A stretch of DNA of 64,000 nucleotides, from NCBI GenBank assembly GCA_964631125.1, contig CAZVYN010000005.1, positions 34,230 to 98,229 of the forward strand. Direction: 5' to 3'. A program made the translations under genes and the position numbers. This stretch comes from an uncultured bacterium (GTDB taxonomy: Bacteria; Eisenbacteria; RBG-16-71-46; CAIMUX01). This document shows positions 11,945 through 32,624 of the stretch, piece by piece; position 1 is the first letter of the stretch, and every line of letters begins with the position of its first letter. A model generated the notes under the pieces. That model saw nothing but the letters and a program-made list of their open reading frames with translations. It was not told where the DNA came from and ran no database searches.

Positions 11945-14509
11945 CTATTCTTCGTCGTCCACCGAGTCGGTTGGCTCGTCGTCCGTCCCGAGATCGTCCT
12001 GGATCTCGAGAGGACCCGAGAGCAGGGCGGAAGTCGCGTCGCCCGCCGGCTCCCCCGCGCTGACCTTGCTCTGGACGTCCAACTCCAGCAACGCCACGTC
12101 CGCCACGCGATCGCCTTCGTCGAGCTGGATCAGCTTCACGCCTTGCGTGGCCCGGCCGAGGAGCGACACTTGCGAAACGGGCACGCGGATGATGATACCG
12201 CCGGTCGCCATTATGATCAGTTCATCGGCGTCGCTGACGGGATGGATCGAGACAACCTGACCGACTCTCGTGGAGGTTCCCAGCGTGAGCACGCCGCGTC
12301 CTCCGCGGAAGGTCTTGCGGTAGTCCTCCAGCCGGCTGCGCTTCCCGAATCCCCTCTCGGTCACGACCAAGATCTCCGTCGTCGGGCTCTCTACGACCAC
12401 CATGCCGACGACGGCGTCGTCCTCGCCGTTGAGGGTGACGCCACGGACGCCCGCTGCGTTCCGACCCATCGGACGCACGTCGGACTCCTCGAACCGGATC
12501 GCCCGACCCTTCCTTGTCGCGAGGAGTAGCTCGCGCGCGCCGTTGGTGAGTCCGGCCCCGATCAACGCGTCCCCTTCACGAAGGTCGACCGCGACGATTC
12601 CTGCCCGGCGAGGATTCCCATACGCGTTCAGCGGCGTTTTCTTGATCGTGCCTTTGCGCGTCGCCAACACCAGATAGAGATCGGGACTGAAGGCGCGCAC
12701 CGGCACGAACGCCGTGATCCGCTCATCGTTGGCGGCGGAGACCAGATTCCTGAGGGAACGGCCCCGCGCCTGCCGCGTTCCGGACGGAATCTCGTGCACC
12801 TTCAACCAGTAGCACCGACCGCGATCCGAGAAGAGCAGGACATAGCTATGCGTGGAAGCGACGAAGACATGCTCGACGAAATCCTCTTCCTTGGTGGTCG
12901 CGGCTGTCAGACCACGACCTCCTCGGTTCTGACTCCGGTAGCTGTTCAACGCCACGCGTTTCGTGTACCCGGCGTGCGAGACCGTGATGACCATGTCCTC
13001 GTCCGGGATCAGGTCTTCGATGACGAAGCTGCCGCCGTCGCCGGTCGGAATGATCTCGGTGCGACGCGGGTCGGCGAACCTGTCCTTGATGTCGATGAGG
13101 TCCTTCTCGATCAGGAGCAGGACCTTCTCTCGGCTCGCCAAAGTCGCTTGCAGGTCTGCAATCCGCGCGCTGACCGCTTCGAATTCGTCGTCGAGCTTCT
13201 GACGCTCCAGGCCGGTCAAGCGCTGCAGACGCAACTCGAGGATCGCGTTGGCTTGCACCTCGGTCAGGTCGAAGCCCTCCATCAAGCCCCGACGCGCCGA
13301 TTCCACATCCGGGCTGTTGCGGATGGTCGTGATGATCGCGTCGAGGTGATCGAGGGCGGCCCGCAAGCCCTGCAGGATGTGCGCGCGGCGCTCCGCTTCT
13401 CGCAGTTCGAATCCGCTCCGGCGGACGATCACCTCCAGACGATGATCGATGAACGCCTGGAGAATCTCCTTCAGGTTCATCACCTTCGGACGGTTCTTGT
13501 CCAACGCGAGCATGTTCGCGCCGAAGGTCGTCTGCATCTGGGTGTGCTTGTAGAGCTGATTGAGGACGACTTGTCCCTGGGCGTCGCGCCGCAGCTCGAT
13601 GACGACCCGCATGCCCTCGCGGTCGGATTCGTCGCGAACATCGGAAATGCCTGAGATGGTGCCCGTCTTCACCAGGTCCGCGATCCGCTCGATCATCGTG
13701 GCCTTGTTCACCTGATACGGGATCTGCGTGACGATGATCGCGTCGCGACCGTTCTTGAGCTGATCGATCTCGGCTCTGGCTCGGACCGTGATCAGCCCGC
13801 GGCCTGTGTGGTAGCAGTCGCGAATTCCTTGGGTGCCGACGATCATCGCCGCGGTCGGAAAGTCGGGTCCCTTCACGTGCCGCATGAGATCGGCCACCGA
13901 GCAGTCGGGGTTGGCGATCAGATGGATCAAGGCGTCGACCACTTCGCCGACGTTGTGGGTCGGAATGTTCGTCGCCATCCCGACCGCGATCCCGGAAGCT
14001 CCGTTCACGATGAGGTTGGGGAAGGTGCTCGGGAGGACAACCGGCTCTTCGCGGCTGTCGTCGTAGTTCGGCCGGAAGTCGACCGTCTCCTTCTCCAGAT
14101 CGGCCAGCATCATCTCGGCGATCTCGGTCAGGCGCGCTTCCGTGTACCGCTCGGCCGCCGCGGTGTCCCCGTCGACCGAGCCGAAGTTCCCCTGCCCGTC
14201 GATGAGCGGATGGCGGAGCGAGAAGTCCTGCACCAAGCGGACGAGCGTGTCGTAGACCGCCGTCGTGCCGTGCGGATGGTAGTTACCGGTGACGTCTCCG
14301 GTGATCTTGGCCGACTTGCGGTACGGCCTGTCGTGGGCGAGCGACAGGTCGTTCATGGCCACCAAGATCCGACGATGAACGGGCTTGAGGCCGTCGCGGA
14401 CATCGGGCAGCGCGCGCGAGACGATGACGCTCATCGAATAATCGATGTAGCTCTTCTTCATCTCCTCTTCGATGCGCGTCGGTACGATTCTCTGTTCGTC
14501 GATCTCCAT
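11945..14509 (-). CDS. gyrA: DNA gyrase subunit A
   Basis: Active-site region KSARITGDVTGNYHPHGD-like (AKITGDVTGNYHPHGT), GyrA-box-containing C-terminal beta-pinwheel repeats, acidic tail. Confidence 0.95.
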   Translation of the reverse strand: MEIDEQRIVPTRIEEEMKKSYIDYSMSVIVSRALPDVRDGLKPVHRRILVAMNDLSLAHDRPYRKSAKITGDVTGNYHPHGTTAVYDTLVRLVQDFSLRHPLIDGQGNFGSVDGDTAAAERYTEARLTEIAEMMLADLEKETVDFRPNYDDSREEPVVLPSTFPNLIVNGASGIAVGMATNIPTHNVGEVVDALIHLIANPDCSVADLMRHVKGPDFPTAAMIVGTQGIRDCYHTGRGLITVRARAEIDQLKNGRDAIIVTQIPYQVNKATMIERIADLVKTGTISGISDVRDESDREGMRVVIELRRDAQGQVVLNQLYKHTQMQTTFGANMLALDKNRPKVMNLKEILQAFIDHRLEVIVRRSGFELREAERRAHILQGLRAALDHLDAIITTIRNSPDVESARRGLMEGFDLTEVQANAILELRLQRLTGLERQKLDDEFEAVSARIADLQATLASREKVLLLIEKDLIDIKDRFADPRRTEIIPTGDGGSFVIEDLIPDEDMVITVSHAGYTKRVALNSYRSQNRGGRGLTAATTKEEDFVEHVFVASTHSYVLLFSDRGRCYWLKVHEIPSGTRQARGRSLRNLVSAANDERITAFVPVRAFSPDLYLVLATRKGTIKKTPLNAYGNPRRAGIVAVDLREGDALIGAGLTNGARELLLATRKGRAIRFEESDVRPMGRNAAGVRGVTLNGEDDAVVGMVVVESPTTEILVVTERGFGKRSRLEDYRKTFRGGRGVLTLGTSTRVGQVVSIHPVSDADELIIMATGGIIIRVPVSQVSLLGRATQGVKLIQLDEGDRVADVALLELDVQSKVSAGEPAGDATSALLSGPLEIQDDLGTDDEPTDSVDDEE

Positions 14510-14588: not shown

Positions 14589-16815
<2,227 letters not shown>

Positions 16816-16818: not shown

Positions 16819-17973
16819 CTAGCGGTGGGCGGGCGCCTCTCCCGCGGCGGAGACTATTTCCTCGCCGGGCAGGCGCAGCGGCATCACCAGGCACAGCAGG
16901 TCTGGTTGTCCGTCGGCGACAACCGGCGTGATGAGTCCGGCGCTCGTCGGCTCCTGGAATGCGAGTTCGAGTTCCTCTGCATCGGTCGTGCGCAGGAGTT
17001 CGAGGAGGAAGTTGGCGTTGTATCCGATGTGGAACGGCGGTCCGTCGTACCTGAGCGGGACGACATCCTCCGCCTCGCCGACGCTCTGTGTCGCCACGCT
17101 GACGCGGAGACTCCCTTCACTCAGGGAGAGTTTCACTTGGCGCGTCATGCTCTCGCTGAAAACCACGACACGTCGGAGCACGCCGAGGAAGTCATCGCGG
17201 CGCACGAACGCACGCTTGTCGGGCTGACACCTGGCGATCACATCGGGATAGTTCGGGAAGCGCCCGTCGAGCAGTCGTGTATAGAGACGCGATGTGCCGA
17301 GGTTGAACAAGCAGTAGCGGCGGTTCGTGCTCAAGGAGACCGACTCCTGCGCTTCTCCGAGCAGCCGTTGTACGATCGCCAAAGCCTTCGGCGGAATGAT
17401 GATATCGCCCCACGTGCTGTAGTCGCCGCGCGCCTCGGCGCGCGCCAGTCGGTGTCCGTCGGTCGCGACGAAACGCAGGGCGCCTTCCACCACATGGACA
17501 TAGACGCCGGTCATCTCTGGCCGCGTGTTGTCGGTCGATACCGCGTAAGCCGTCTGCCGGATCAGACGCTCCAGCACCTCCACCGGCGCGGCAAAGATCT
17601 TCTCTTCGCTCAGAGAGGGGACTTCCGGGAATTCGTCCGGATCGGGTCCGACCAGGCGGTACCTCCCCTGACCACACGTCAGCGTCAGCCCGCCGCCCGT
17701 TCCCTTCACTTGGACGGCATCGCTGGGAAGTTCTTTCACGACCTCCAAGAAGCGCCTCGCGGGAATCGCCGCCACCCCCGGCTCGTCAACGACACCGCGC
17801 GCACTGGCGAGGAGAAACGTGTCGAGATCGGTTGCCTGGAAGGTGATGGTTCCGTCTTTGGCGGCTTCCACGAGGACGGATCCGAGGCTGGGATTCGCGG
17901 CTCGGGTCGGAACGACACTAGCGACGAGCTGAAGACACCGATGCAGTTCCGACTGCACGAGAGAAAAGCGCAT
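16819..17973 (-). CDS. dnaN: DNA polymerase III beta sliding clamp
   Basis: 384 aa. Three-domain clamp, with the N-terminal TDLD...LASARG-like region and C-terminal pocket residues. Confidence 0.9.
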   Translation of the reverse strand: MRFSLVQSELHRCLQLVASVVPTRAANPSLGSVLVEAAKDGTITFQATDLDTFLLASARGVVDEPGVAAIPARRFLEVVKELPSDAVQVKGTGGGLTLTCGQGRYRLVGPDPDEFPEVPSLSEEKIFAAPVEVLERLIRQTAYAVSTDNTRPEMTGVYVHVVEGALRFVATDGHRLARAEARGDYSTWGDIIIPPKALAIVQRLLGEAQESVSLSTNRRYCLFNLGTSRLYTRLLDGRFPNYPDVIARCQPDKRAFVRRDDFLGVLRRVVVFSESMTRQVKLSLSEGSLRVSVATQSVGEAEDVVPLRYDGPPFHIGYNANFLLELLRTTDAEELELAFQEPTSAGLITPVVADGQPDLLCLVMPLRLPGEEIVSAAGEAPAHR

Positions 17974-19838: not shown

Positions 19839-20581
19839 GTCAAAGGCCCCCAGGGAGAACGAATTGCCCACAGAGTTGTCCACACAGGGATGTGGGCGAC
19901 GTTGAGAAGTCCGGCCGAGAGCGGGCCGGCGTGGGGTAAGGCGTAGCCACAGAGGGCAGCGGTTGTGAACAACCGGCGGCACCTCTAAATCTTTATAAAA
20001 CTGAATGTTACGGTGTTGCCGACGAGTTCCACACTCACCCTGTGCATAACTGGGTCGCCGGGACGCTGAGACTTCGGAGGTTAGCCATGCTCGTGCGACG
20101 GTGGAAGTACGCGCGAACACTCCAGTTATAAACATGAGTGGTGTTCGAAAGCGGCGGTACTCTATCACGCACTCGATGGACCGGCAAACCCATTTTGGGA
20201 GGGGGATGGATTCCACCAATTCTAAGTCACGCCGGGGGTTACCCGGTCTTGGAACTCCGCCGCCGTGCCTCCGGGTCGGTCCGTCGCGACCACGAGCGGG
20301 TCCGCGGGGGCGCCGGACGCGAACCATCGTGCGGTGACGGGCGGTTTTCACGCCCGACCCGGTGGTAGATCAGCTGCGCGGCCAGGGCGCTAAACGCCAT
20401 TGACGCCAGGGACTTTGTGGGATAGCGTCCGCCCGCGCCTGCCCCCTTCTCGATGGGGCGCAGTCCGATGGCGCCCCGTTCGATGGGTTACAGTGCACGG
20501 CCGACCGGCGGAACATCGACCCGAGTCGGAGATCAGATAGCAGTCGGCTTGCCGGCTTCCGCTCGGGAAGGATACAGGGGA
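19839..20581. other. dnaA-rpmH divergent intergenic region: candidate oriC with AT-rich DUE
   Basis: A 740-bp non-coding region between divergent dnaA and rpmH. It holds a strikingly AT-rich 26-mer (ctaaatctttataaaactgaatgtta, ~19985-20012) in a ~68% GC genome. DnaA-box-like 9-mers are nearby: TTGTCCACA (~19875), TTGCCCACA (~19865), AGTTCCACA (~20025), TTATAAACA (~20125). Confidence 0.5.
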
Positions 20582-20722
20582 ATGAAGCGAACATATCAAC
20601 CGCACAACCGGAAGCGCCGCAAGGCCCATGGGTTTCGTGCACGCATGAAGTCCGCAGGGGGACGCAAGGTACTCAGCCGTCGCCGCGCCAAGGGTCGTCG
20701 GCGACTCACCGTCTCCATCTGA
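20582..20722 (+). CDS. rpmH: 50S ribosomal protein L34
   Basis: [22 protein letters not shown]... is near-invariant L34. ATG at M44 of the track ORF, preceded by AGGGGAA. Confidence 0.9.
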
Positions 20723-21173: not shown

Positions 21174-21542
21174 ATGGGCAGAGGATTGTCGACCACCGTC
21201 GCCTTCGGAGCGGTCTGGACGATCCGGCTCTACCAGATCTGTGTATCCCCCTGGTTACCGTCGGCGTGCCGGTTTCAACCAACATGTTCAAGTTACGCGA
21301 TCGAGGCCGTGCATGAGCACGGCCCATGGCGCGCGCTCCCACTGGTTGCATCTCGAGTCTGGAGATGTCGCCCCGGAGTGAAGGCAGGAGTCCTGGATCC
21401 TGTGCCGTGCCGGAGTCATCGCACCGAGGAAAATCTCCATGGATCGGAGAACACTGCTCGCCTTCCTCTTGGCGACCGTCGTTCTCGTCGTGTACCAGCT
21501 GATCGCGCCCCCTCCGGGCGACCGGAACCCGCCGCGATCTGA
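21174..21542 (+). CDS. yidD: Membrane protein insertion efficiency factor YidD (C-terminally extended)
   Basis: IRLYQICVSPWLPSACRFQPTCSSYAIEAV is the YidD signature. The ORF runs about 40 aa beyond the usual YidD end and overlaps yidC by ~100 nt. Confidence 0.7.
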   Translation: MGRGLSTTVAFGAVWTIRLYQICVSPWLPSACRFQPTCSSYAIEAVHEHGPWRALPLVASRVWRCRPGVKAGVLDPVPCRSHRTEENLHGSENTARLPLGDRRSRRVPADRAPSGRPEPAAI

Positions 21543-23133
21543 GCCGGCCGACGCCGCAGTAACCAGAGAGAGCACGCAGAGCGCTCCCTTCGCCGACACC
21601 GCAGCGCGGAACGGGACCGCTCTGCCCGCGCCCGAAGCTGCTCCGGTCACGGCCGGCGGATGGCCGACGCCCCCCCGCTCGCTCCAGCGGACCGACGTCG
21701 TGAAGACCGAAGTCGTGCTCCAATCGGTCGAGGCGGTCACGATTGCGAACGCGGATATGGCGATCCAGATTTCCCCGTTGGGGGCGACTCCGACGCAATG
21801 GTCCCTCAGCCGGTGGACGGACGCGAGGGAACAGGAAGTCCGTCTCGTTTCTCGCCAGAACGCTCGCCTGTTCGAGATGGCGATCGTCGACGATGGAAGT
21901 CGGATCGAGTTCCCCGACATCCAGTTCGAACAGCAGCCGTCGGTGGACGGGCAGGCGAGATTCGCGGCCACCGGCCCGGACGGCCAGCGGATCGCGCTCG
22001 ATTACCGGCTGGATGATACGTATCAAGTGGCGCTCGAGGTCACGCTGACTGGATTCGAGAACCCGGACGGGGAGCGTTCTCTCGAGATCGTCTTTCCGAG
22101 GGGCATTCCGAGCCAGGAGAAGATCTCGAAGCAGGACGAACAATCGGCCGCCGCGATGGCGATGGTCGGCAATCGTCTGGTCAAGCACCTCCATCACGGC
22201 AAGAAAGCCGGGTGGGCGGAAGAGGAAGAGGGCGTCGTCCGCTGGATCGGAATGCGCTCGAAGTACTTCCTCGTATCGATCGTTCCCGCGCAGAGCCCGG
22301 ACGCGCAAGTGTCCTTCCGGCGTGAGCGGGGAGAGCCGGACCTGAGTGCGACTCTGCTGCTGCCCCTCGGGCTTTCGGGAGAGTCGCGGTTCTCGTTCGG
22401 ATTGTACGGCGGACCGATGGAGTACCGCCGTCTGGAGGGACTCGGAGTCAACCTGGAGAAGGCGGTAGACCTCGGTTGGTCGATCTTCCTCCCCCTGACA
22501 CGACTCCTGCTCCGGTTCTTCCAGTGGATGCACGGCGCCGTCCCCAACTACGGCGTCGTCATCGTGATCCTATCCGTGATGGTCAAGCTGATCTTCTATC
22601 CGTTGACGAAGGCGAGCTTGAACAGCATGAAGCAGATGCAGGCGCTGAAGCCGGAAATGGATCGGCTGGCGGAGAAGTACAAGGACGAGCCGGAAAAGCG
22701 GAACAAGTCGACGCTGGAACTCTACCAGAAGCACAAGGTCAATCCGGTCAGCGGATGTCTTCCGATCTTGATCCAGATTCCTGTGTTCGGGGCGCTCTAC
22801 AACGTGTTCAACACGGCGATCGAACTGCGAAAGGCGCCCTTCGGGCTGTGGATCCAGGATCTGTCCGCCCCAGACAAGGTCGGGGCGATTCTCGGATTCC
22901 CTCTCCACGTTCTACCGCTCTTGCTCGCCGCGACCGCGATCATCCAACAGAAGCTGACTCCGACCGATCCGCGTCAGGCCGCGCTCATGTATCTGCTGCC
23001 CGTCATCACGACGGTGTTCTTCTATACGCTCCCCTCAGGACTCGTCCTCTATTGGACAGTCACCAACGTCCTACAGATCGGGCAGCAAATTCTCGTCAAC
23101 CGAAGCTCGGCGCCGCTCGCCAAGGCCGCGTGA
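21439..23133 (+). CDS. yidC: Membrane protein insertase YidC
   Basis: 564 aa. N-terminal TM, large periplasmic domain, then the conserved 5-TM core (PLTKASLNSMKQMQALKPEMDRLAEKYKD...CLPILIQIPVF). Confidence 0.9.
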   Translation: MDRRTLLAFLLATVVLVVYQLIAPPPGDRNPPRSEPADAAVTRESTQSAPFADTAARNGTALPAPEAAPVTAGGWPTPPRSLQRTDVVKTEVVLQSVEAVTIANADMAIQISPLGATPTQWSLSRWTDAREQEVRLVSRQNARLFEMAIVDDGSRIEFPDIQFEQQPSVDGQARFAATGPDGQRIALDYRLDDTYQVALEVTLTGFENPDGERSLEIVFPRGIPSQEKISKQDEQSAAAMAMVGNRLVKHLHHGKKAGWAEEEEGVVRWIGMRSKYFLVSIVPAQSPDAQVSFRRERGEPDLSATLLLPLGLSGESRFSFGLYGGPMEYRRLEGLGVNLEKAVDLGWSIFLPLTRLLLRFFQWMHGAVPNYGVVIVILSVMVKLIFYPLTKASLNSMKQMQALKPEMDRLAEKYKDEPEKRNKSTLELYQKHKVNPVSGCLPILIQIPVFGALYNVFNTAIELRKAPFGLWIQDLSAPDKVGAILGFPLHVLPLLLAATAIIQQKLTPTDPRQAALMYLLPVITTVFFYTLPSGLVLYWTVTNVLQIGQQILVNRSSAPLAKAA

Positions 23134-23165
23134 CGCGAAGGCCGCGAAGCAATCAGGAGAACGTG

Positions 23166-24506
23166 ATGAACCCCAGGAACGACCGGAATCTGAGAGCGGT
23201 CCGCAGCATCGAGCGGACCGGGAAGACAGTCGAAGACGCGGTGCGCGAGGCCATGCAGATGTTGCGTGTTTCGCGGGAAGAGATCGATATCGAGGTGCTC
23301 GAGGAAGGCCGAGGCGGGTTTCTCGGACTGGGCGCCAAGGAAGCGAGGATTCGGGCGCGCGTGCGCCAAGCCGGCGGACGCCCGGAGCGCAGCGAACGAC
23401 CGGGCCGGCCACCGGTTCGCGAGGAGTCGAGTCGCCGCCCGGATCGTGGACCCGAGGCTCGCGCCGCCGCCGCGGGACCCGCGCGTTCGGACAGCCCGCG
23501 CCAGGAAGCTCCAACCGCTCGGCCGTCGAGCCCGCGCGAGGACCGCGCGCCGCGGGATGATCGCGCGCCGCGCGACGATCGCGGCCCCCGTCGACGCGGC
23601 GGACGCGATCAAGCCGAGAGACCGGCGCCCGCGCCCCGCGCGGTGGCGCCCGCTCCGAGGGCCGACGGACCTCGACGCGAGCCTCGGGCGGCCGCGTCGA
23701 ACGGCGACCTCTCCGATCTGCTCCGCGACTTCGCCGGCGGGCTACTCGAACGGATCGGAATTCCTTCACAAGTCACTGTAGAACAACAAGATGGCGTTTA
23801 TGCCGTGGCCGTCGCTCCGAGCGGCGACGAGAGCCTGCTGATCGGTCGGGGGGGCGAGACACTCGACGCGATCCAGCACATCCTCTTGAAGACGGCGGCC
23901 CGCCGCCAGGAGGGAGTGCAAGTGCGACTCGACGTTGGCGGGTACCGTGACCGACGCGACGACGAGTTGGGAGAGAAGGCCAAGGAACTAGCGCAGGAAG
24001 TGCTCCGCACCGGCGACGGGATCACGACGGCCATGCTGCGCGCCTCGGAACGTCGCATCGTCCACCGGGCGGTCTCCGAGGTTCCTGGCGTCGCAACCAG
24101 GGCGCTCGGCGACGGCGCGTTGAAGAAGATCCTCATCGAGCCAGAGGGCGGGAGCACCGAGATCTCCCGCGAGGTGGACCTGCTCGGTGACGGAGGCGCC
24201 CGCGAGGAAGAAGGTTCGCGACCGCCCCGGAGCCGGCCGTTCGACGAAGAGCTGGGCGGAAGGGGTTCGAGCCGCGGCGGTCGGGGCCCGGCGGGCGGAC
24301 GCGGTCCGCGTGCGCGCCGATCCGAAGGTGACGACTTTGCACCGGCGCCGAGCGGCGATGTTTCGGAGACACCGATTCGAGCGCCGAGGACCGCACCGGC
24401 GCCTCCACCGGCGCCCAGGGAGCCGCGACCGGTTCCGCCGGAAACCCCGGCAGCGGGCGACGAGTGGGGCCGCAAGGCGAAGCCGGCCAAGGGTCGACGC
24501 CGCTAG
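23166..24506 (+). CDS. khpB: Jag/KhpB (EloR) RNA-binding protein, unusually long
   Basis: Jag_N (MNPRNDRNLRAVRSIERTGKTVEDAVREAM), KH (LLIGRGGETLDAIQHI) and R3H (RIVHRAV) domains. A long Arg/Pro/Asp/Glu-rich linker carries DRAPRD repeats; the Arg/Gly-rich C-terminal tail is a separate segment. Track ORF 22476..24506 begins out of context inside yidC. ATG 23166 is preceded by AGGAGA. Confidence 0.8.
   Translation: MNPRNDRNLRAVRSIERTGKTVEDAVREAMQMLRVSREEIDIEVLEEGRGGFLGLGAKEARIRARVRQAGGRPERSERPGRPPVREESSRRPDRGPEARAAAAGPARSDSPRQEAPTARPSSPREDRAPRDDRAPRDDRGPRRRGGRDQAERPAPAPRAVAPAPRADGPRREPRAAASNGDLSDLLRDFAGGLLERIGIPSQVTVEQQDGVYAVAVAPSGDESLLIGRGGETLDAIQHILLKTAARRQEGVQVRLDVGGYRDRRDDELGEKAKELAQEVLRTGDGITTAMLRASERRIVHRAVSEVPGVATRALGDGALKKILIEPEGGSTEISREVDLLGDGGAREEEGSRPPRSRPFDEELGGRGSSRGGRGPAGGRGPRARRSEGDDFAPAPSGDVSETPIRAPRTAPAPPPAPREPRPVPPETPAAGDEWGRKAKPAKGRRR
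23538..23579 (+). repeat. Short tandem repeat encoding (E)DRAPRD x2-3 within jag linker
   Basis: gaccgcgcgccgcgggat / gatcgcgcgccgcgcgac / gatcgcggcccccgtcga are near-identical 18-nt units. Confidence 0.5.
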
Positions 24507-25277
24507 GTGCCGAGAGCGCCTCGCTCGCGCGCGAGCGGAAACCGGTTCGACGCGCAACCGGCCCCACCGCGCCGACCCCGACCGCACGGGAGAACTCCGG
24601 CCGAGTTCGAGCAATTGAACTCGGACCGAGAGGTGCTCCTCCGCCAGTTGGAAGAGGCGGGCGTGGCCGTCGACTCGACCGCCGCGGAAAACCTCGGTCG
24701 GTTTGCCCGTGCGGTACTCGAATGGAACGATCGGCTGAATCTCGTTTCCCGGCGGGACGCCGCGAATGTGTTCCGAAAACACATCGCGGCGTCCGCGGGA
24801 GTACTGACGGTCGCCGAGCCGCAAATCGGAGAGCGCTGGGTAGATGTCGGTACCGGGGCTGGATTCCCCGGAGTGGTCATCAAGATCCTCCGGCCGCAGC
24901 TCGTCATTACCCTGGTCGAGTCGTCACACAAGCGCTGCGTCTTCTTGGAAGCCATCGTGCGCGAGCTCGGCTTGACTTCGGTCGACGTTCGCGCGATGCG
25001 CGCGGAAACCCTCCTTGGGCGCGATGGCGCGGAACACAATTTCGACCTGCTCACGAGCCGCGCGGTCAGCTCCCTGGAGGAGTCGGTCCGAGAGTTCGCG
25101 GGGTTGCTCCGCCCGGGCGGCCGATTCTTGACGTTCAAAGGACCCAGTTGGGAGGCCGAACTCGCGGCCGCACAAACGGCGCTGACTGCCGCAGGCCTCA
25201 GGTTCGTCGAAACGCGTGAGATGCCTTGGGTGACGGGGCGGATCGTGGTCCTCGAGAAGAACGCCAGCACCACATAG
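24507..25277 (+). CDS. rsmG: 16S rRNA (guanine527-N7)-methyltransferase RsmG (GidB)
   Basis: SAM-binding VDVGTGAGFPG plus RsmG-specific blocks. The first ~30 aa (Arg/Pro-rich) are probably not part of the protein, so the true start is likely 24.56-24.60 kb. Confidence 0.8.
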   Translation: MPRAPRSRASGNRFDAQPAPPRRPRPHGRTPAEFEQLNSDREVLLRQLEEAGVAVDSTAAENLGRFARAVLEWNDRLNLVSRRDAANVFRKHIAASAGVLTVAEPQIGERWVDVGTGAGFPGVVIKILRPQLVITLVESSHKRCVFLEAIVRELGLTSVDVRAMRAETLLGRDGAEHNFDLLTSRAVSSLEESVREFAGLLRPGGRFLTFKGPSWEAELAAAQTALTAAGLRFVETREMPWVTGRIVVLEKNASTT

Positions 25278-25352: not shown

Positions 25353-25368
25353 TGTTCCACGTGAAACT
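25353..25368. promoter_or_regulatory. parS-like centromere site (TGTTCCACGTGAAACT)
   Basis: 15/16 match to the TGTTTCACGTGAAACA palindrome, ~100 bp upstream of parA. Confidence 0.6.
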
Positions 25369-25468
25369 TCGCGTTGACCCCTACCTGATGGGTTGTTAGC
25401 TTCCCGCCGCGTCTTCCCCGATCCCTCCTCGCCAACCCGAGCAATTCCACGTCACCGCCGGCCCGCAA

Positions 25469-26356
25469 ATGAACGGATTCGAGATGGACTTCGGCGATAG
25501 CCCAGAGGATCCGAGCGGCGTGACGGACACGGCGACCGACGATTCCCTAGAGGAGGCGCAGTCCGGTCCTGCTTCGCCCGATCTCCGACCGACCAAGCTC
25601 GCCCGCGTGATCGCTGTCGTGAACCAGAAGGGTGGCGTGGGGAAAACCACGACCACGATCAACCTGGGCGCCGCGCTAGCCCTGCTCGATCGGAGAGTGT
25701 TGATCGTCGACTTGGATCCGCAGGCGAACGCGACGTCCGGGATCGGATTGCCTCGCGGGCGGGCGGCGTCCTACGAGTTGTTGGTCGGGGATGCTGATGT
25801 TGGGAGCCTGCTCGAGAAAACCGAGATCGCACACCTCGACATCGTGCCGTCAGCAGCGGAACTCGCCGGCGCCGAAGTGGAGCTGGTGGGCGAAGTCCAG
25901 CGCGAATCCGTGCTACGGCGGCGAATCGCAAGTTTCGCGAGCGACTACGACTACATCTTCATCGACTGCCCGCCATCGCTCGGGCTGATCACACTGAACG
26001 CTCTGGTCGCGGCCTCCTCTGTGCTCATTCCGCTTCAGTGCGAGTACTACGCCCTGGAAGGGATCGGCCACCTACTCAACACCCTCAAGTTGGTGCAGGA
26101 ACGCTTGAATCCGGATCTCCGGATCGAGGGAATCCTGCTGACCATGTTCGATGGGCGCCTCAATCTTTCGGTGCAGGTCGCAGAGGATGCGCGGCGGCAC
26201 TTCGGGAGCAAAGTCTACGCGACCATGATCCCGAGGAATGTCCGACTGAGCGAAGCGCCTAGCTTCGGCAAGCCAATCGTCCTGTATGACCCCGCCTGCA
26301 CGGGAGCCGTGAGTTACATCAACCTCGCGAAGGAAGTAGACAGCCATGAACGGTAG
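25469..26356 (+). CDS. parA: Chromosome partitioning ATPase ParA (Soj)
   Basis: Deviant Walker A KGGVGKTTT plus ParA blocks. The first ~40 aa form an acidic extension. Confidence 0.9.
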   Translation: MNGFEMDFGDSPEDPSGVTDTATDDSLEEAQSGPASPDLRPTKLARVIAVVNQKGGVGKTTTTINLGAALALLDRRVLIVDLDPQANATSGIGLPRGRAASYELLVGDADVGSLLEKTEIAHLDIVPSAAELAGAEVELVGEVQRESVLRRRIASFASDYDYIFIDCPPSLGLITLNALVAASSVLIPLQCEYYALEGIGHLLNTLKLVQERLNPDLRIEGILLTMFDGRLNLSVQVAEDARRHFGSKVYATMIPRNVRLSEAPSFGKPIVLYDPACTGAVSYINLAKEVDSHER

Positions 26357-27245
26357 GCGTGTGCTCGGGAGGGGTCTCGACTCGCTCATCCCGCAACCGC
26401 AGGAGGCCGGCCCGACGGTAGCCGCCCCGGCGCTCATGCCGGGCACCGAGGTGGCTCAGGTGCACTGGATTCCGGTAGAACAGATCGTTCCGAATCCGCG
26501 GCAGCCGCGCACCCTCTTCAACGACGAGAAATTGCATGACCTGGCGCGGTCGATTCAGGAGAAGGGCATCCTGGAGCCACTTATTGTCCGGCCCGTGGAA
26601 GGCGGCGGGTTTGAACTGGTGGCGGGCGAGCGACGCCTCCGAGCCGCACAGTTGATCGGTCACGCGGAGGTCCCCGTGCTCTTTCGGGCGCTCGACGACC
26701 GCGCATCCCTGGAGATCGCGCTCATCGAGAACCTACAGCGAGAGGACCTCAATCCGGTGGACGAGGCGCGCGCCTACCAGAAACTGGCCGAGGAGTTTGG
26801 CCGGACGCATGCTGACATCTCGAAGGAAGTTGGGAAGGATCGAAGCACGATCACCAATCTACTCCGAATTCTCCGACTTCCCGAGTCGCTGCTCGAAGAG
26901 GTTTCACGTGGAACACTCTCCGTGGGTCACGCGCGCGTCTTGCTCGCGTTCGAGGACCGCGACGAGCAGCTCAAGGTGGGTCGGCGAATGCTCGAGGAGG
27001 CGTGGAGCGTCCGACAGGCCGAGCGCCATCTGGCCGAACGGAGCACGACGCGGCCGAAGAAGGCCGCAGCCGTCGCCCCTCAAAGAGATCGACAAGTCGT
27101 CAGGGTCGAAGAAGCGCTGCAATATGCCCTCGGTACGCAGGTAGTCCTGACGCATAGCGCCAAAGGCGGCAAGATCGAGATCCGCTACTTCAGCGACGAA
27201 GAGTTGGAGCGCATCCTCGAAATCCTGGGCATCGAGATCCGCTGA
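26346..27245 (+). CDS. parB: Chromosome partitioning protein ParB (Spo0J)
   Basis: ParB box GERRLRAA and HTH (ISKEVGKDRSTITNLLRIL). Overlaps parA by 11 nt. Confidence 0.9.
   Translation: MNGRRVLGRGLDSLIPQPQEAGPTVAAPALMPGTEVAQVHWIPVEQIVPNPRQPRTLFNDEKLHDLARSIQEKGILEPLIVRPVEGGGFELVAGERRLRAAQLIGHAEVPVLFRALDDRASLEIALIENLQREDLNPVDEARAYQKLAEEFGRTHADISKEVGKDRSTITNLLRILRLPESLLEEVSRGTLSVGHARVLLAFEDRDEQLKVGRRMLEEAWSVRQAERHLAERSTTRPKKAAAVAPQRDRQVVRVEEALQYALGTQVVLTHSAKGGKIEIRYFSDEELERILEILGIEIR
26900..26915. promoter_or_regulatory. Second parS-like site (GGTTTCACGTGGAACA) inside parB
   Basis: One mismatch to the parS core palindrome. Intragenic parS within parB is common. Confidence 0.5.
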
Positions 27246-27249
27246 GAAG

Positions 27250-28041
27250 ATGCACTCACGAACGCCGGATTCCAGGGCCTCACGGCAAGAGACGATCTCG
27301 ATCGTGGTTGCGCCATCCAGAACCGGCGTCGTGCGCCAATGGGAGGTTCCGGAGCGCGCGGGCCGGATTCTCCTCGTCCTCTGCCTGGTTCTGGCGATCG
27401 GTGCCATCGCCGGGGCCGTAGTCTTCGCCCGGGCCGTTCAAACCGCCAGCCGGGTTCGCTCGCTCGAAACCGAGAACGCGTCGTTGCGAACACAATTCGC
27501 GCGCGTGGATGAGTTGGAACGCAAGCTGTACGACCTGTCCCGGCAAAACGCGAAAATGCGCCTGCTCGCTGGAATCGAGGAGGCGAGTTCCGGGCGACCC
27601 CAGCCGACACGCACGCCTCCGCAGGCTGGAGCGTCCGCCGAGTATATCGCGCCGTATCGAGGTCCGATCTCCCGGGGATTCCACGCAAGTGGGGATCGCG
27701 AGTCGCATCCCGGAACCGACATCTCAGGGCCCCGAGGGGCGGACGTCGTGGCTGCGGCCGATGGCGTGGTCACTCGCGCAGAGTTCGACGCGATCTACGG
27801 GAACTGCATCGTCCTCGAACATGCTGACGGATACGAATCGCTGTACGGTCACGCGGATAGTCTCTTTGTCGCGAAGGGCCAGCGCGTGCGCGCCGGCGAC
27901 AGCATCGCGGCTCTGGGGAACACTGGGCAGAGCACCGCCCCGCACCTTCATTTCGAAGTCAGGAAGGACGGGGAGCCGGTGGACCCGGCGGCGTTCGTGA
28001 CAGGCTATTGGACAGGCCGGTCTGATCATGCGGACAAGTGA
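27250..28041 (+). CDS. M23 family metallopeptidase (LytM-like) with N-terminal TM and coiled-coil
   Basis: HxxxD and HxH motifs (HPGTDI...; GNTGQSTAPHLHFEV). N-terminal TM anchor plus coiled-coil is typical of divisome and shape-associated M23 proteins. Confidence 0.85.
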   Translation: MHSRTPDSRASRQETISIVVAPSRTGVVRQWEVPERAGRILLVLCLVLAIGAIAGAVVFARAVQTASRVRSLETENASLRTQFARVDELERKLYDLSRQNAKMRLLAGIEEASSGRPQPTRTPPQAGASAEYIAPYRGPISRGFHASGDRESHPGTDISGPRGADVVAAADGVVTRAEFDAIYGNCIVLEHADGYESLYGHADSLFVAKGQRVRAGDSIAALGNTGQSTAPHLHFEVRKDGEPVDPAAFVTGYWTGRSDHADK

Positions 28042-28095
28042 GGGAACGGGGATCGATCCCGGGAGATTGGATCACGGATGAAGAGGGAGGGGTCA

Positions 28096-28548
28096 ATGTT
28101 CGGCAAGAACGCGGAAGCAGCGCCGGCAGGAGGAAAGCACACGCAGTCGATCCTGCAGGAGGGAGTCTTCCTGAGGGGCGAATTCGACGCGAAGGGTGAC
28201 GTTCGGCTCGACGGGCGGCTCGACGGGAAGATCCGGGTATCGGAGCGACTCACCATCGGTGCGGCGGGAAGGCTCGAGGCCGACGTCGAAGCAGCTGAAG
28301 TGATCGTGATGGGAGAGGTGAAGGGAACGATCCGCGCGCAGCGCCGGCTGGAGATGCGAAAAGGCGCGAGAGTCACGGGCGATGTGTCCTGCCCGAATCT
28401 GATCGTCGAAGAGGGCGTCTTCTTCCAGGGTCATTCGAGCATGGGAGCGGTCGCTGCGGAGGGGCTGGAGGTCGTCGCCGGCGGGAAGCCCAGAGAGTCT
28501 CAAGCAAAGCCAGGCGACGGGGACGAGTTCAGGCACATGGTCCAGTAG
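28096..28548 (+). CDS. Bactofilin (polymer-forming cytoskeletal protein)
   Basis: DUF583 beta-helical repeats (LRGEFDAKGDVRLDGRLDGKIRVSERLTIGAAGRLEADVEAAEVIVMGEVKG). ATG at M7 of the track ORF is preceded by AGAGGGAGGGG. Confidence 0.8.
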   Translation: MFGKNAEAAPAGGKHTQSILQEGVFLRGEFDAKGDVRLDGRLDGKIRVSERLTIGAAGRLEADVEAAEVIVMGEVKGTIRAQRRLEMRKGARVTGDVSCPNLIVEEGVFFQGHSSMGAVAAEGLEVVAGGKPRESQAKPGDGDEFRHMVQ

Positions 28549-28850
28549 TAAGTCCCGCGACCGCCCCGTCCAACGTTCCGTCGGAATGAGGAAAGCCTTC
28601 GCAATCGCCCTCGATACGTGTGGACAATCCAGTAACAACATGTCACGCAATGTTTTAGAGTGTCGATGACTTGTTGATATCGACAACCCGCGGGCTTGGG
28701 TGGAACCGCACCGCCACGGCCGCCCGAATCGGCTTTCTGTTTGACACGTCAAAAGTTGCAAGCCTAAGATCCGCCGCGGATTCCGGGGAGGACGCGACGT
28801 CCGAATCAGGAGTCTCTTCGCCGCTTGGGGTTGGAAAGGGAAGTCTCGGA

Positions 28851-30680
28851 ATGCTTGTTTCGCGTCGAAGGGGTGTCGACAGAGTGGCCAAGAGTCCCGA
28901 GGGAAGGTGCAGAGTTCCAGTAGCACTGCTGTGGCATCCCTTGTCCTGGTTTGCGATGGTCCTGCCCGTGCTCCTGATCTCCCTGGGCGCTTGCTCAGAG
29001 GATGATCCACCGACTCCTCCCGACACTCAGCCTCCCGAAGTGCTCCTGGTCTATCCGACGCGCGACGTCGACGACCCATTCACGGTCAGCGACTCTGTCG
29101 ACGTTGTTGTCGTTGCGCGAGATCAATCCGGCATCTCTTCGGTTGAGATGTATTTCTCGCGCCCCGGCGATCCGGCGAGAACATTGATCGGCCAGACAGC
29201 GAACTCGGTGGAACTGAGCGACCTGCCGGACAGCGTGGCCAAGGCGATCACGGTTCCTGACGGCTTCTCGCTCTACTCGGTGCGCTGGAGAACCGCAACG
29301 ATCCGAAGCGGCTCGACTCCGCAGGTGCTCTCGGTCGCTCTCGATGCGAACGGCAATCGGGGTGTCTCGAGCGACCTCACGGTCTATGTCCTGAATCGCG
29401 GACAACGACTCGAGCCGCCGAGGGTGGATTTCATCATCTCGCCCCCGAATGGCTCATTCCATGACGAGTTTGCTTTCGACCCGACCGGGTTGACGTTCGA
29501 CGAGAGCGAGATCAATACGCCGGAACAGATCCGCCTGCGATGGGACTTCAACGGCGACGCTCGACCCTCTGACCCTGACGAGAGTCGCTGGGAAGTAAAG
29601 TGGTCCGATCGCGCGAACGCCTCCCAAGTGCAGCGCTATACGTACCAAGGCGCGGGGAGCTATATCGTCAAGGCCGAAGCCAGAAATACGTACTTGGAGA
29701 ACGAGACATCGATTCGGCAGCGCTCGCTCATCGTCAGCGCGTCGGTCACGGATCCGGCGCCGCCGAACCCGGAGGACTATCTGCTGCTGCCGGCCGGCAC
29801 GTACCGCGTCGGGAATGCAGACTCCACGATGCTCAGAAGCGGCCTGGCCGACGCCGACGAGTACCCGAATCACGCCGTGCGTCTGAACTTCAACGCGAGA
29901 GTCTCGAAGTTCGAAGTCACCACCGCTCTCTACCTCGGGTACATCAACGAGGCATCGCAAGCGGACCCGCCGCTGGTCCGTCTCGTCGCTGGACAGATCG
30001 TCTTCAATGATCTTGCAGCGCCGGTGGACTCGGCGGATCACGTCTACGTGTCGCTGGACGACACGAGAATCTTCTTCGATCCGGACGACAGCCAGTTCCG
30101 GATCCGGGCGGGATACGAGCAACACCCGATGACCGGCGTCACCTTCCGTGGCGCCCTGGCCTACTGCTCCCACTACGGACTCCGGCTCTTGACGGAATCG
30201 GAGTGGGAGGTCCTGGCTCGAGGCGATTCGTTGGCTTGGAGTTACCCCTACGGTCGGTCGCTCTTCGACGGCGATCCGACGGGCCAGAGGCGGATCAATT
30301 ACGAGGACTCGGGAGATCCCTTCGAAGACGATAGTTCGGACATTCTGTCCGGGACGACTCCGGTTGGGTTCTATGACGGACGCGTTGCCTCGGGATTCGA
30401 GACCATCGACACACCCAGCCCGCTGCTCCCGGTAGGCGCGTACGACGTCAGCGGAAATGTCGCTGAGTGGGTAGGCGACTGGTACGCACGGTATGGGCGC
30501 GACCAGCTCGAGGATCCGACCGGCCCGTTGGAGGGTGTCTTCAAGGTCATCCGGGGGGGCAGCCACGTCAACGGACCACGCGGCGTGCGCGTGACGGCCC
30601 GCGCCATCGGTTCGGTCAACGAGTCGTATCCCACGGTCGGCTTCCGCCCTGCCTACACGGATTTCGAGGGGCTTCGGTAG
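28851..30680 (+). CDS. Lipoprotein with PKD-like domain and C-terminal FGE/SUMF1 (formylglycine-generating-enzyme-like) domain
   Basis: Signal plus lipobox (LLISLGAC) and a PKD-like segment (IRLRWDFNGD). The C-terminal FGE-sulfatase fold has GYRLLTESEWE, NVAEWVGDWY and VIRGGS motifs. Start moved to ATG at M61 of the track ORF (Arg-rich n-region, GGAAGG upstream). Confidence 0.7.
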   Translation: MLVSRRRGVDRVAKSPEGRCRVPVALLWHPLSWFAMVLPVLLISLGACSEDDPPTPPDTQPPEVLLVYPTRDVDDPFTVSDSVDVVVVARDQSGISSVEMYFSRPGDPARTLIGQTANSVELSDLPDSVAKAITVPDGFSLYSVRWRTATIRSGSTPQVLSVALDANGNRGVSSDLTVYVLNRGQRLEPPRVDFIISPPNGSFHDEFAFDPTGLTFDESEINTPEQIRLRWDFNGDARPSDPDESRWEVKWSDRANASQVQRYTYQGAGSYIVKAEARNTYLENETSIRQRSLIVSASVTDPAPPNPEDYLLLPAGTYRVGNADSTMLRSGLADADEYPNHAVRLNFNARVSKFEVTTALYLGYINEASQADPPLVRLVAGQIVFNDLAAPVDSADHVYVSLDDTRIFFDPDDSQFRIRAGYEQHPMTGVTFRGALAYCSHYGLRLLTESEWEVLARGDSLAWSYPYGRSLFDGDPTGQRRINYEDSGDPFEDDSSDILSGTTPVGFYDGRVASGFETIDTPSPLLPVGAYDVSGNVAEWVGDWYARYGRDQLEDPTGPLEGVFKVIRGGSHVNGPRGVRVTARAIGSVNESYPTVGFRPAYTDFEGLR

Positions 30681-30734: not shown

Positions 30735-32624
30735 ATGGAGAGAGTATCCTTGTCCCGGAAGTCCGACTGGCTCTGCACTCTCGGTCTCGTCCTCCTCGCG
30801 GTGATCGTCTACTGGGGAACGACGACCCACGCCCGCCTCCGAGAGGACCAGCAGGTCGTCTGGTCGAACTCTTCGATCTCGGGTTCCGATCTGAAGGGCG
30901 CGCTGCTCGGTAACTTCTACGCCAACTCCGCGGAGACGCGCAGCGTCGTGCGACCCGTAAGCGCGCTGTTCCTCCGGACCGCGCACGCGGTCTTCACCTT
31001 CGACCGGGCCTTGTACCAGTCGCTGCTCATCGCTTTGCACGGAACCGCCACGGCGCTCTTGTTCTGGCTGGCGCGGCGTCGAGGGATCGAGAGAATCCCC
31101 GCGGGCGTCATGGCGGGGCTCTTCGCGGTCCACCCCCTGACAACAGTCGCCACTCTCACGCTCGCGGGAACCAGCCACGTTCTGGCGCTGACGTTCGCGC
31201 TCGGCGCCCTCTTGCTCTCTCCTGCGCGCGCGAACCGGAAGACGGGGTCGTTGTCGGCCTGGATTCCGTCGCTGCTCTTACTTCTCGCCGCCATCCTCTC
31301 GCACGAGGCGGCATTCGCGTTCGCGCCCGTTCTGTTCGTGTGGGCGCTACCGGTCGGTGAACGCGAGGCATCCCGAACGGTTCGCGCTTCCGGACCGCCG
31401 AGATCGTTGCTCTTCGGTCTGGTCGGAGTCATCGCGGTTGCGATCGCCTGGCGGTTGATCGCGGACGCGGCCTTGAGCCCAACGCAGCAGGCGGCGCGAG
31501 CCGTGACGATCACGAGCGGCCTTTCGTGGTTCGAGACGGCGCGGTCCGGATGCGCCGGAGTGCTCGTCGCGCTCGGGCTGTTCGTGGCGCCCTGGCGTCT
31601 GAGTTATGTGCACGACGGACTCTTGTCGCTGAACGGCGTCCTCGGCGCGACCGCGGTGGCGGGCGGCCTGCTCGCACTCATCGGACTGGCGGCCTGGTTA
31701 GGGATGGACCTGCGCCGCGGAGCAAGCGAACGGTCGCGGTGGATCGCGCTGGCGTTCTTCCCGCTGCTCGCCGCCTCAGGCGTCTTGATCCCTACCGGCG
31801 ATCTGCTGAACGCACGCATGCTCTACTTGGCGCTGCCCGGCCTGCTCGCACTTGTGGTGATCGTACTGCCCGCGCTGGTCGCGACGAGGACGGGTCGCGC
31901 CCCAGGAACGAAGCGCGCTAACGGCGGTCGGTTGGCGCTGGGGCTCGGGGTTGCCGTCGCGCTCCTGTTTGCGGCGCGGACCGTCGTGCGAGCCAGGGAC
32001 TTCCAAGATCGAGAGACGCTGATCAAGGCGCAGATAGCGACCGATCCGTATTCCGCCCAGGCCCACTTCGAACTCGGGAATCTCTATCTGGACCGGAGCG
32101 CCTGGGAAGCCGCGCGAGCGGAGTACGAGAGGGCGGTGGAGTTGCGTCCGGAGCTCTGGGAGGCATGGATCAATCTCGGCGCCGCCTACTTCAACAGTAA
32201 CGAACTCGGTCTGTCGATGCGTTGCTACGAGCAAGCCTGGCCGCACGTGAAGGACTCGGCCGAGTTCACGACCGTCCGAGGGCGGCTGCTCTTCAACCGC
32301 GCGCTCATCCTGACGAAGCAAAACCGAAACACCGAGGCGTCGGTGAATCTGGAAGAAGCGCTGGAGATCTTTCCAAACCATTTACGCGCGCACGCGATCT
32401 TGGCGCACATCTACGCCAATAGTAACGAGTACCTCGAGCAGTCGAGGTTCCACCTCGAACGCGCGATCGACTTGCAGCCCGACCCCGACGCGCGCCGGAA
32501 GCTGCAGACCAAGCTGGCCGAGATCGAGAAGCGAACGGTCCGCAAGGAAGCGTTCGAGGAGCACGGCGACATGAACAAGGCGCTCGACGAGTACACACCC
32601 GAAGAGCCGGCGGAGACTGAGTAG
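30735..32624 (+). CDS. Polytopic membrane protein with C-terminal TPR repeats (PMT/GT39-like or DUF2723-like glycosyltransferase candidate)
   Basis: About 11 TM helices over the first 400 aa, then 4-5 TPR motifs (AHFELGNLYLDRSAWEAARAEYERAVELRPELWEAWINLGAAYF...). This architecture matches TPR-containing glycosyl- or mannosyltransferases. Confidence 0.65.
   Translation: MERVSLSRKSDWLCTLGLVLLAVIVYWGTTTHARLREDQQVVWSNSSISGSDLKGALLGNFYANSAETRSVVRPVSALFLRTAHAVFTFDRALYQSLLIALHGTATALLFWLARRRGIERIPAGVMAGLFAVHPLTTVATLTLAGTSHVLALTFALGALLLSPARANRKTGSLSAWIPSLLLLLAAILSHEAAFAFAPVLFVWALPVGEREASRTVRASGPPRSLLFGLVGVIAVAIAWRLIADAALSPTQQAARAVTITSGLSWFETARSGCAGVLVALGLFVAPWRLSYVHDGLLSLNGVLGATAVAGGLLALIGLAAWLGMDLRRGASERSRWIALAFFPLLAASGVLIPTGDLLNARMLYLALPGLLALVVIVLPALVATRTGRAPGTKRANGGRLALGLGVAVALLFAARTVVRARDFQDRETLIKAQIATDPYSAQAHFELGNLYLDRSAWEAARAEYERAVELRPELWEAWINLGAAYFNSNELGLSMRCYEQAWPHVKDSAEFTTVRGRLLFNRALILTKQNRNTEASVNLEEALEIFPNHLRAHAILAHIYANSNEYLEQSRFHLERAIDLQPDPDARRKLQTKLAEIEKRTVRKEAFEEHGDMNKALDEYTPEEPAETE

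Follow-up and report, generated by a model that had tools for sequence, protein, structure and literature searches.

The window, i.e. the entire 64-kb stretch of DNA analysed here, represents an origin-proximal part of the chromosome of a Candidatus Eisenbacteria genome. It harbours a chromosomal, likewise origin-proximal ParABS partition system consisting of a ParA ATPase, a three-domain ParB and near-consensus parS sites; parA and parB are directly followed by genes for an M23 peptidase and a bactofilin. An earlier note on this DNA had named these four genes. All four identities were upheld by Pfam, and the hidden Markov model (HMM) search suggested in the note as a check returned Peptidase_M23 (E 4e-34) and DUF583/PF04519 (E 4e-27) for the latter two. 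The locus comprises the following features:

25353..25368, no strand: parS1, near-consensus ParB-binding palindrome TGTTCCACGTGAAACT between rsmG and parA, 1 mismatch to TGTTNCACGTGAAACA
25469..26356, plus strand: parA, Walker-type partition ATPase of 295 aa (Pfam AAA_31, E 1e-61; CbiA, E 7e-28)
26346..27245, plus strand: parB, 299 aa (Pfam ParB_N, HTH_ParB and ParB_C; NCBIfam TIGR00180)
26900..26915, no strand: parS2, inside parB, TGTTCCACGTGAAACC when read on the minus strand (parS scan)
27250..28041, plus strand: predicted LmdC-like bitopic M23 metallopeptidase of 263 aa (Pfam Peptidase_M23, E 4e-34; AlphaFold2; transmembrane (TM) hydropathy; LytM fold)
27292..27351, plus strand: predicted cytoplasmic β-hairpin segment of the M23 protein (residues 15-34), presumed bactofilin-binding element (AlphaFold2 and conserved motif)
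28096..28548, plus strand: bactofilin of 150 aa, N-terminus MFGKNAEA (PF04519, E 4e-27, profile positions 1-97 of 98)

A scan of the 64 kb for TGTTNCACGTGAAACA at ≤2 mismatches, accompanied by a shuffled-sequence control, yielded exactly two matches in the window and none in the shuffled sequence. The two sites have the core GTTCCACGTGAAAC in common and are the near-consensus palindromes upstream of parA and inside parB that had been pointed out before, recovered at the same positions. The distance from parS1 to the parA start amounts to 100 nt; in an identical contig of the Joint Genome Institute (JGI) the parA start is called 5 codons later. The last 11 nt of the parA coding sequence are shared with parB. 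The closest named ParB (72% identical) is labelled Candidatus Eisenbacteria.

The M23 gene directly follows parB, as had been claimed, at a distance of 4 nt between the parB stop and the M23 ATG rather than the 5 nt given before. A gap of 54 nt separates the M23 stop (28041) from the bactofilin ATG (28096). In a consensus scan extending from parA to the end of the bactofilin gene, neither promoter-like nor terminator-like sites were detected; separate promoters and terminators between the genes, which the earlier note had regarded as contradicting its proposal, were hence not found at this level of analysis. Owing to the narrow gaps of 4 and 54 nt and the lack of internal promoter-like or terminator-like sites, parA, parB, the M23 gene and the bactofilin gene apparently form one operon. 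The loci of relatives display similarly tight parB-M23-bactofilin spacing.

Bactofilin and M23 peptidase

The bactofilin domain spans approximately residues 18-114 and is followed by a disordered C-terminal tail; NCBIfam gave no match for this protein. Its open frame reaches back to an ATG at 28078. The start is nevertheless likely to be the ATG at 28096, which is preceded by the strong Shine-Dalgarno sequence GGGAGGGG and yields an N-terminus (MFGKN) resembling the membrane-targeting motif of bactofilins; the same 150-aa start is called by JGI. The consensus of this motif is MFSKKKK, with F2, K4 and K7 being critical in BacA of Caulobacter crescentus. F2 and K4 are present in the bactofilin of the window and position 7 is occupied by Glu. 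The N-termini of relatives' bactofilins read MFGK, MLGKK and MFKK.

For the M23 protein, an AlphaFold2 model was built from a 41-sequence alignment (mean predicted local distance difference test score (pLDDT) of 84). The model begins with a β-hairpin (residues 15-20 and 29-34; pLDDT 72-86), continues with a single unbroken helix (residues 35-107; pLDDT >90 at its start) and, via a disordered linker (residues 108-130), leads into an all-β M23 domain (residues 131-250). The first part of the long helix is predicted to traverse the membrane: residues 40-58 are strongly hydrophobic, the Kyte-Doolittle value over 19 residues reaches 3.06 at residue 40, and the TM segment is placed at residues ~38-60. 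Since this hydrophobic stretch is preceded by a tail (residues 1-37) containing six Arg/Lys, the tail is probably cytoplasmic and the remainder of the protein periplasmic.

The hairpin is recognizable as a sequence motif composed of basic residues, hydrophobic-S/T-hydrophobic(4)-P, a turn and a second strand, upon which the TM helix follows. This motif is kept from Eisenbacteria to Bacillota, with P22 being invariant. Because of this conservation across phyla, the start of the M23 gene was set to ATG 27250, which retains the conserved first strand ISIVVAP, and not to the later GTG called by JGI, which removes that strand. The hairpin-TM-helix N-terminus is also common to many M23 proteins lacking an adjacent bactofilin and thus marks a broad clade. 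Overall, the modelled architecture of the M23 protein (cytoplasmic hairpin, one TM helix, long helix and M23 domain) is that of LmdC, the bactofilin-binding endopeptidase of alphaproteobacteria.

The catalytic and zinc-binding residues of the M23 domain form a complete set (H153-PGT-D157, H201 and H232-L-H234). H153, D157, H201, H232 and H234 show no variation among 11 parB-linked orthologues (6 phyla) or among 41 homologues, and the active-site residues align with those of 3slu and 6muk, two active M23 enzymes from Neisseria. A Foldseek search with the model retrieved LytM-fold structures, Csd1 and Csd2 among them, with the LytM domains of EnvC and DipM on top. The latter result, together with the scores of EnvC and DipM in NCBIfam and the fact that EnvC likewise joins a coiled coil with a LytM domain, could suggest a non-catalytic amidase activator of the EnvC/NlpD/DipM type acting in cell separation instead of an endopeptidase. 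In EnvC, NlpD and DipM, however, the zinc-binding and catalytic residues are degenerate, whereas the full set is intact and invariant in the M23 protein of the window and its homologues. Moreover, the NCBIfam scores are far below the family (equivalog) cut-offs (all matches were domain-only, and no specific family was assigned), and the M23 protein is predicted to be anchored, unlike EnvC, by an N-terminal TM segment with a cytoplasmic hairpin. An EnvC/NlpD-like activator is accordingly very improbable and was rejected on the grounds of the intact catalytic residues.

Linkage of bactofilin to parAB in other genomes

Conservation within the Eisenbacteria was assessed from the contexts of ParB homologues of falling identity to that of the window, gaps being rechecked by six-frame HMM search. 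Downstream of parB, the following genes were found:

L167, ParB 72% identical to the window: M23 gene, bactofilin gene and FGE-sulfatase gene, as in the window
L168, ParB 64%: gene for a 145-aa hairpin-TM-helix protein without M23 domain, then bactofilin gene
L169, ParB 59%: bactofilin gene only
L170, ParB 52%: M23 gene split by one in-frame TGA, then bactofilin gene
L171, ParB 47%: bactofilin gene only
L173, ParB 47%: bactofilin gene only

With the window counted, bactofilin follows parB in all seven Eisenbacteria loci (7/7), down to a ParB identity of 47%. The M23 gene is intact in two of them, interrupted in one, truncated in one and absent from three. Since it is damaged or absent in 5/7 loci, the conserved link is that between parB and bactofilin, not that between parB and M23. 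Co-conservation of both genes with parAB in relatives, on which the earlier note had made its proposal depend, therefore holds for bactofilin (7/7) and fails for the M23 gene (intact in 2/7). On the basis of these comparisons, bactofilin appears as the conserved partner of parAB and the M23 enzyme as a frequent but dispensable client.

The M23-less protein of L168 (L168:5937-6374; GCA_964371055.1) keeps the hairpin, the TM helix and the periplasmic helix between parB and bactofilin, and could be either an adaptor devoid of the catalytic domain or the product of a decaying gene. In L170 (L170:5880-6746; ENA contig_1763) the single TGA (6090-6092) falls precisely in between the segments for the TM helix and the periplasmic helix, and gene calling recovered no more than the C-terminal 217 aa; the gene may be split or a pseudogene, or the TGA may stem from a sequencing error.

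Beyond the Eisenbacteria, a ParB-anchored set was compiled that consists of 80 arbitrary, phylogenetically broad loci among the matches listed for a ParB alignment query against GTDB representative genomes. Six-frame open reading frames of these loci were searched with iterated HMMs derived from the window proteins, and a subset of the matches was confirmed with Pfam. Bactofilin was detected ≤4 kb downstream of parB in 11 of the 80 loci, eight of which also contain M23. The order parB-M23-bactofilin occurs in Ca. Zhuqueibacter, KSB1, Chitinivibrionales, two Gemmatimonadota and one Syntrophomonadaceae genome. In the Bacillaceae and Veillonellaceae loci, two genes intervene between parB and the M23-bactofilin pair; the linkage is looser in Bacillota. 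Bactofilin follows parB without M23 in Binatia, Terriglobia and Aminicenantes (L007 and L084 belong to these M23-less loci). The parB-bactofilin order was not found in the 30 Patescibacteria, 14 Bacteroidota, 7 Actinomycetota and few other loci of the set, and several of its Gemmatimonadota loci are devoid of the M23-bactofilin pair. No bactofilin was detected elsewhere in the 80 loci (~0.9 Mb), including upstream of parB or on the other strand. As a relaxed HMM search (E ≤10, filters off) revealed no further M23 or bactofilin genes in these loci, their absence is real at this sensitivity. Under a null rate of 0.1-0.5% per locus, a rough estimate and not a measured value, 11/80 corresponds to P ≤1e-12.

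Separate look-ups provided additional parB-M23-bactofilin loci in a Gemmatimonadales-like contig and a KSB1 genome, and in a Latescibacteria contig a gene with the hairpin-TM-helix N-terminus of the M23 protein begins 1 nt downstream of parB, shortly before the contig breaks off. Taken together, bactofilin directly behind parB is a recurrent arrangement, encountered in about ten bacterial phyla. With respect to the genes intervening in Bacillota, those at L012:6840-8869 resemble, judged by N-terminal sequence only, an aminotransferase and a DUF554-type membrane protein, and those at L066:6933-8904 encode 445 and 175 aa.

A second, M23-anchored set comprised the best 80 of 587 arbitrary metagenomic M23 matches. 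Bactofilin is encoded directly downstream in 12 of these 80. Nine of the 12 pairs could be evaluated upstream: four are located directly behind parAB and five are unlinked to it. None of the 68 M23 genes without bactofilin has a same-strand parB upstream.

Neutral hitch-hiking, in which the 3' end of a constitutive origin-proximal operon would serve as permissive landing site and adjacency would be devoid of functional meaning, could explain the decay or loss of M23 in several Eisenbacteria, the two unrelated genes between parB and the pair in some Bacillota, and the several Gemmatimonadota loci without the pair. It is difficult to reconcile with the persistence of bactofilin behind parB in 7/7 Eisenbacteria despite ParB identities down to 47%, and with the same order in many phyla in conjunction with the lack of bactofilin matches upstream or on the other strand of the ParB-anchored loci. 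A neighbour-joining tree of the bactofilin domains (120 columns, without support values) furthermore displays grouping by phylum, which weakly suggests long vertical retention. Hitch-hiking is hence considered improbable.

Proposed function and relation to known systems

Pairing of M23 peptidase and bactofilin has already been reported for 226 species, and its mechanism was shown in two alphaproteobacteria (Pöhl 2024, PMC10945521); it has also been noted for Helicobacter pylori, Borrelia and others. The cytoplasmic hairpin tail of LmdC binds BacA polymers, in the case of Rhodospirillum rubrum via the clusters R25-H26-L27 and R30-S31, and the M23 domain is a DD-endopeptidase (PMC10945521). The LmdC-BacA pairs of Hyphomonas neptunium and R. 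rubrum share with the window the order of M23 gene and bactofilin gene on one strand at close spacing. Likewise common to LmdC and the M23 protein of the window, as modelled, are the bitopic topology, the short hairpin-bearing tail, the single TM segment, the periplasmic helical region and the C-terminal M23 domain with full zinc ligands. The bactofilins have in common that their disordered tails are short and that their N-termini carry an MF-x-K peptide.

The M23 protein of the window differs from LmdC in being much shorter (263 aa with one ~45-residue helix, as compared to three coiled-coil regions in LmdC), and the enzyme is, unlike in LmdC-BacA, dispensable in sister lineages. Eisenbacteria are not contained in the list published by Pöhl. 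Furthermore, the pair of the window ends a parAB operon ~5 kb from oriC, which distinguishes it from most pairs of the Pöhl list as far as the entries considered here are concerned. The majority of these entries, that of R. rubrum included, are located far from position 1 of the genome records, the origin and parAB positions of which were not examined, and parAB is not discussed in that study (PMC10945521).

The interpretation favoured here, with a probability of about 0.6, is that of a ParABS locus whose operon carries at its 3' end a morphogenetic pair of the LmdC-BacA type, with bactofilin confining cleavage by the M23 enzyme. Bactofilin would form polymers independently of nucleotides on the cytosolic side of the cytoplasmic membrane, held there by its N-terminal MFGK peptide, and would bind the short cytoplasmic β-hairpin tail of the bitopic M23 protein, the long helix and catalytically intact domain of which would reside in the periplasm. 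Cleavage of peptidoglycan cross-links would thereby be confined to the site of bactofilin assembly, such that local wall growth or cell shape would be modulated. Transcription from the same origin-proximal unit as parA and parB would mean that expression and gene dosage of the pair follow those of the segregation machinery. What we infer for the pair concerns its binding, its localisation, the specificity of the enzyme, co-transcription and any dependence on ParABS.

Several points weigh against this interpretation. The periplasmic helix, for which "coiled coil" is a plausible label from the model, has a hydrophobicity at heptad positions a/d of 0.54 versus 0.41 in shuffles, which is not significant (P = 0.07); of the TM segment and coiled coil named in the earlier note, the former is borne out by hydropathy and the latter reduces to a long helix. 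The scans for promoters and terminators relied on sigma-70 and intrinsic-terminator consensus sequences, which may not apply to Eisenbacteria. Loss of or damage to M23 in 5/7 Eisenbacteria loci implies a role of bactofilin in these lineages that would be independent of the enzyme. Finally, the parB-bactofilin synteny is stronger and broader than co-expression obviously requires, which leaves room for a direct tie to ParABS.

Bactofilin genes next to parAB have been remarked upon in two single species. In Myxococcus xanthus, parA-parB-bacM-MXAN_7474 are co-transcribed (Iniesta 2014, PMC3899335), with BacM reported to function in cell shape and to be dispensable for segregation (PMC5703909; PMC3899335). 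For Bdellovibrio bacteriovorus, a figure legend has the bactofilin gene bd3904 beside parB in the arrangement parA-parB-bd3904 (Kaljević 2023, PMC10547168). Both species resemble the window and the M23-less loci of Eisenbacteria, Binatia and Acidobacteriota in the position of bactofilin downstream of parAB, and differ from the window in that no M23 gene lies between parB and bactofilin. In neither case was the adjacency treated as a feature shared across phyla. Apart from these single-species remarks, no description of parAB-bactofilin or parAB-M23-bactofilin as conserved arrangement was found in the literature covered, from which subscription journals were mostly excluded.

BacNOP-PadC represents the only demonstrated mechanism by which bactofilin polymers and ParABS act together, as the earlier note had proposed for the window. 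The bacNOP-padC genes, organisers of ParABS in Myxococcus, form an operon separate from parAB-bacM (Lin 2017, PMC5703909). This system possesses three paralogous bactofilins and the ParB-like CTPase adaptor PadC recruiting ParA, none of which features are present in the window: according to Pfam, the cluster contains a single bactofilin flanked by the M23 protein, an FGE-sulfatase lipoprotein and a tetratricopeptide repeat (TPR)-containing membrane protein, and no PadC-like adaptor. Coupling of bactofilin to ParABS in Myxococcus, cited in the earlier note, is thus correct as such; it does not serve as parallel to a parAB-adjacent gene, because BacNOP/PadC are encoded in a separate operon and BacM is the parAB-adjacent bactofilin, so that two Myxococcus systems had been conflated.

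Against this background, direct coupling constitutes a tentative alternative, to which a rather low probability is assigned. Bactofilin would be a membrane landmark positioning ParB-parS or ParA, and the M23 client would tie segregation to wall hydrolysis at a local site, which might be the pole, a bud site or the future septum. Such coupling could account for the parB-bactofilin order in about ten phyla and 7/7 Eisenbacteria loci, for its enrichment far above chance under the rough null and for the occurrence of a same-strand parB directly upstream only where bactofilin follows (best 80 M23 matches); it would agree with the same order drawn for M. xanthus and B. bacteriovorus and with the ability of bactofilins to organise ParABS, cf. 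BacNOP-PadC (PMC5703909). Yet the cluster lacks both a PadC-like ParB/CTPase adaptor and a second bactofilin paralogue, and BacM, the only parAB-linked bactofilin studied experimentally, was reported not to be required for segregation. In addition, most published M23-bactofilin pairs are, to the extent that their listing was considered and judged by genome coordinates, far from parAB, 5/9 evaluable pairs among the best 80 M23 matches are unlinked to it, and synteny indicates co-regulation, not contact. In the favoured interpretation, coupling to ParABS would amount at least to shared origin-proximal expression; a scaffold that physically links ParABS with peptidoglycan hydrolysis is a conjecture drawn from synteny alone.

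The Csd1(-Csd2)-CcmA system of H. pylori, the other parallel drawn in the earlier note, is apt in that a gene for an M23 (LytM) peptidase adjoins a bactofilin gene, as in the window, and represents the same known pairing (PMC10945521). The effect of CcmA on Csd1 has been described as possibly indirect, and a non-catalytic paralogue, Csd2, is present in H. pylori; neither a Csd2-like paralogue nor other Csd genes were seen in the window, and the H. pylori pair has not been reported to belong to parAB.

While the M23-bactofilin module is known, it had not been listed for Eisenbacteria, and its constant position within the parAB operon as well as the wide spread of this order go beyond the literature covered; the novelty is organisational and not that of a demonstrated mechanism. 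So far, positioning and cargo of the widespread bactofilins have been told as two partial stories, one of M23 clients (LmdC, Csd1) and one of the ParABS scaffold (BacNOP-PadC). In many phyla, bactofilin is conserved as gene three or four of the parAB operon, and an LmdC-like peptidase often intervenes between parB and bactofilin. If functional, this linkage would connect segregation of the origin directly, and in a testable manner, with remodelling of the wall at a local site, and would point to tractable organisms that may have the same operon, such as Negativicutes, Halanaerobiales and Gemmatimonadota. The pair of Halothermothrix appears to lie near the end of its record, which would suggest origin proximity, and the same may hold for Pelosinus JBW45. 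Even if restricted to co-expression, the arrangement would define a distinct, compact LmdC subtype. The M23 loss series (intact, interrupted, truncated, absent) is useful for asking about the role of bactofilin without the enzyme.

A still wider reading is regarded as doubtful. Bactofilin behind parB might be an ancient, vertically retained feature of the partition operon and bactofilin a general ParABS accessory that has gone unrecognised so far. This feature would then extend over Eisenbacteria, Latescibacterota, Gemmatimonadota, KSB1, Zhuqueibacterota and Fibrobacterota, over Acidobacteriota, Binatota, Myxococcota and Bdellovibrionota, and over parts of Bacillota. As a membrane landmark, bactofilin would determine the holding site of the segregated origin or of ParA, the LmdC-like M23 enzyme, as a facultative client, would mark the same site in the cell wall, and the truncated, M23-less hairpin-TM-helix protein of L168 might be an adaptor in its own right.

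Replication origin and neighbouring genes

The locus is flanked by the following features:

24507..25277, plus strand: rsmG/gidB, upstream neighbour closing the series rpmH-rnpA-yidD-yidC-jag-rsmG (Pfam GidB, E 1e-41)
28549..28850, plus strand: intergenic region of 302 nt, probable end of the unit (consensus scans only)
28851..30680, plus strand: probable lipoprotein with FGE-sulfatase domain (PF03781, E 5e-29; N-terminal signal ending LGAC)

Upstream of the ParABS locus, at a distance of 5-13 kb, dnaA, dnaN and gyrBA are located on the minus strand in the order gyrA (11945-14509), gyrB (14589-16493), dnaN (16819-17973) and dnaA (18432 to ~19850). GyrB shares 72-79% identity with proteins labelled Candidatus Eisenbacteria; the DNA of the window itself was matched by JGI metagenome contigs only. 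The plus-strand series runs from rpmH, rnpA and yidD via yidC (21439-23133), jag/khpB (23157-24506) and rsmG (24507-25277) to parA and parB. Cumulative GC skew of the 64 kb has its minimum at ~16-20 kb, and six DnaA-box-like sites were counted in the window (2.3 expected), three of which flank dnaA. Gene order, GC-skew minimum and DnaA-box-like sites around dnaA together place the cluster next to the origin, as had been stated in the earlier note; parS1 is separated from the dnaA-rpmH gap by ~5 kb.

The dnaA open frame runs on to 20351 (minus strand), i.e. ~170 codons before the DnaA_N domain, which begins at residue 181. The true dnaA start is probably much later than 20351, and the putative oriC gap would then extend roughly from 19850 to 20590. 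The product of jag/khpB (23157-24506), with 449 aa, is unusually long for the Jag/KhpB family; Jag_N and the KH domain are separated by a long insertion that is rich in Arg, Pro and Asp and appears disordered, and the protein has a C-terminal tail of the same character. An Rfam scan of the whole 64 kb yielded no family at gathering threshold and no tRNA, rRNA or riboswitch, so that the intergenic regions are not explained by a riboswitch or the like.

Downstream of bactofilin, the intergenic region contains a weak terminator-like hairpin with T-tract (28718-28734) and a promoter-like TTGACA-18-TAAGAT (28741-28770; 10/12 sigma-70-like match). The DnaA-box-like nonamer TTGTCCACA in the same region (28619-28627, minus strand), just downstream of bactofilin, is probably a chance match in view of the 6 matches in the window versus 2.3 expected. 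The gene for the FGE-sulfatase lipoprotein, which is found downstream of bactofilin in 6/7 Eisenbacteria loci, probably belongs to a separate transcription unit. It is followed in the window (30735-32624) and several Eisenbacteria loci by a gene for a TPR-containing membrane protein. The parAB-bacM operon of M. xanthus also closes with the gene for an uncharacterised lipoprotein, MXAN_7474 (PMC3899335).

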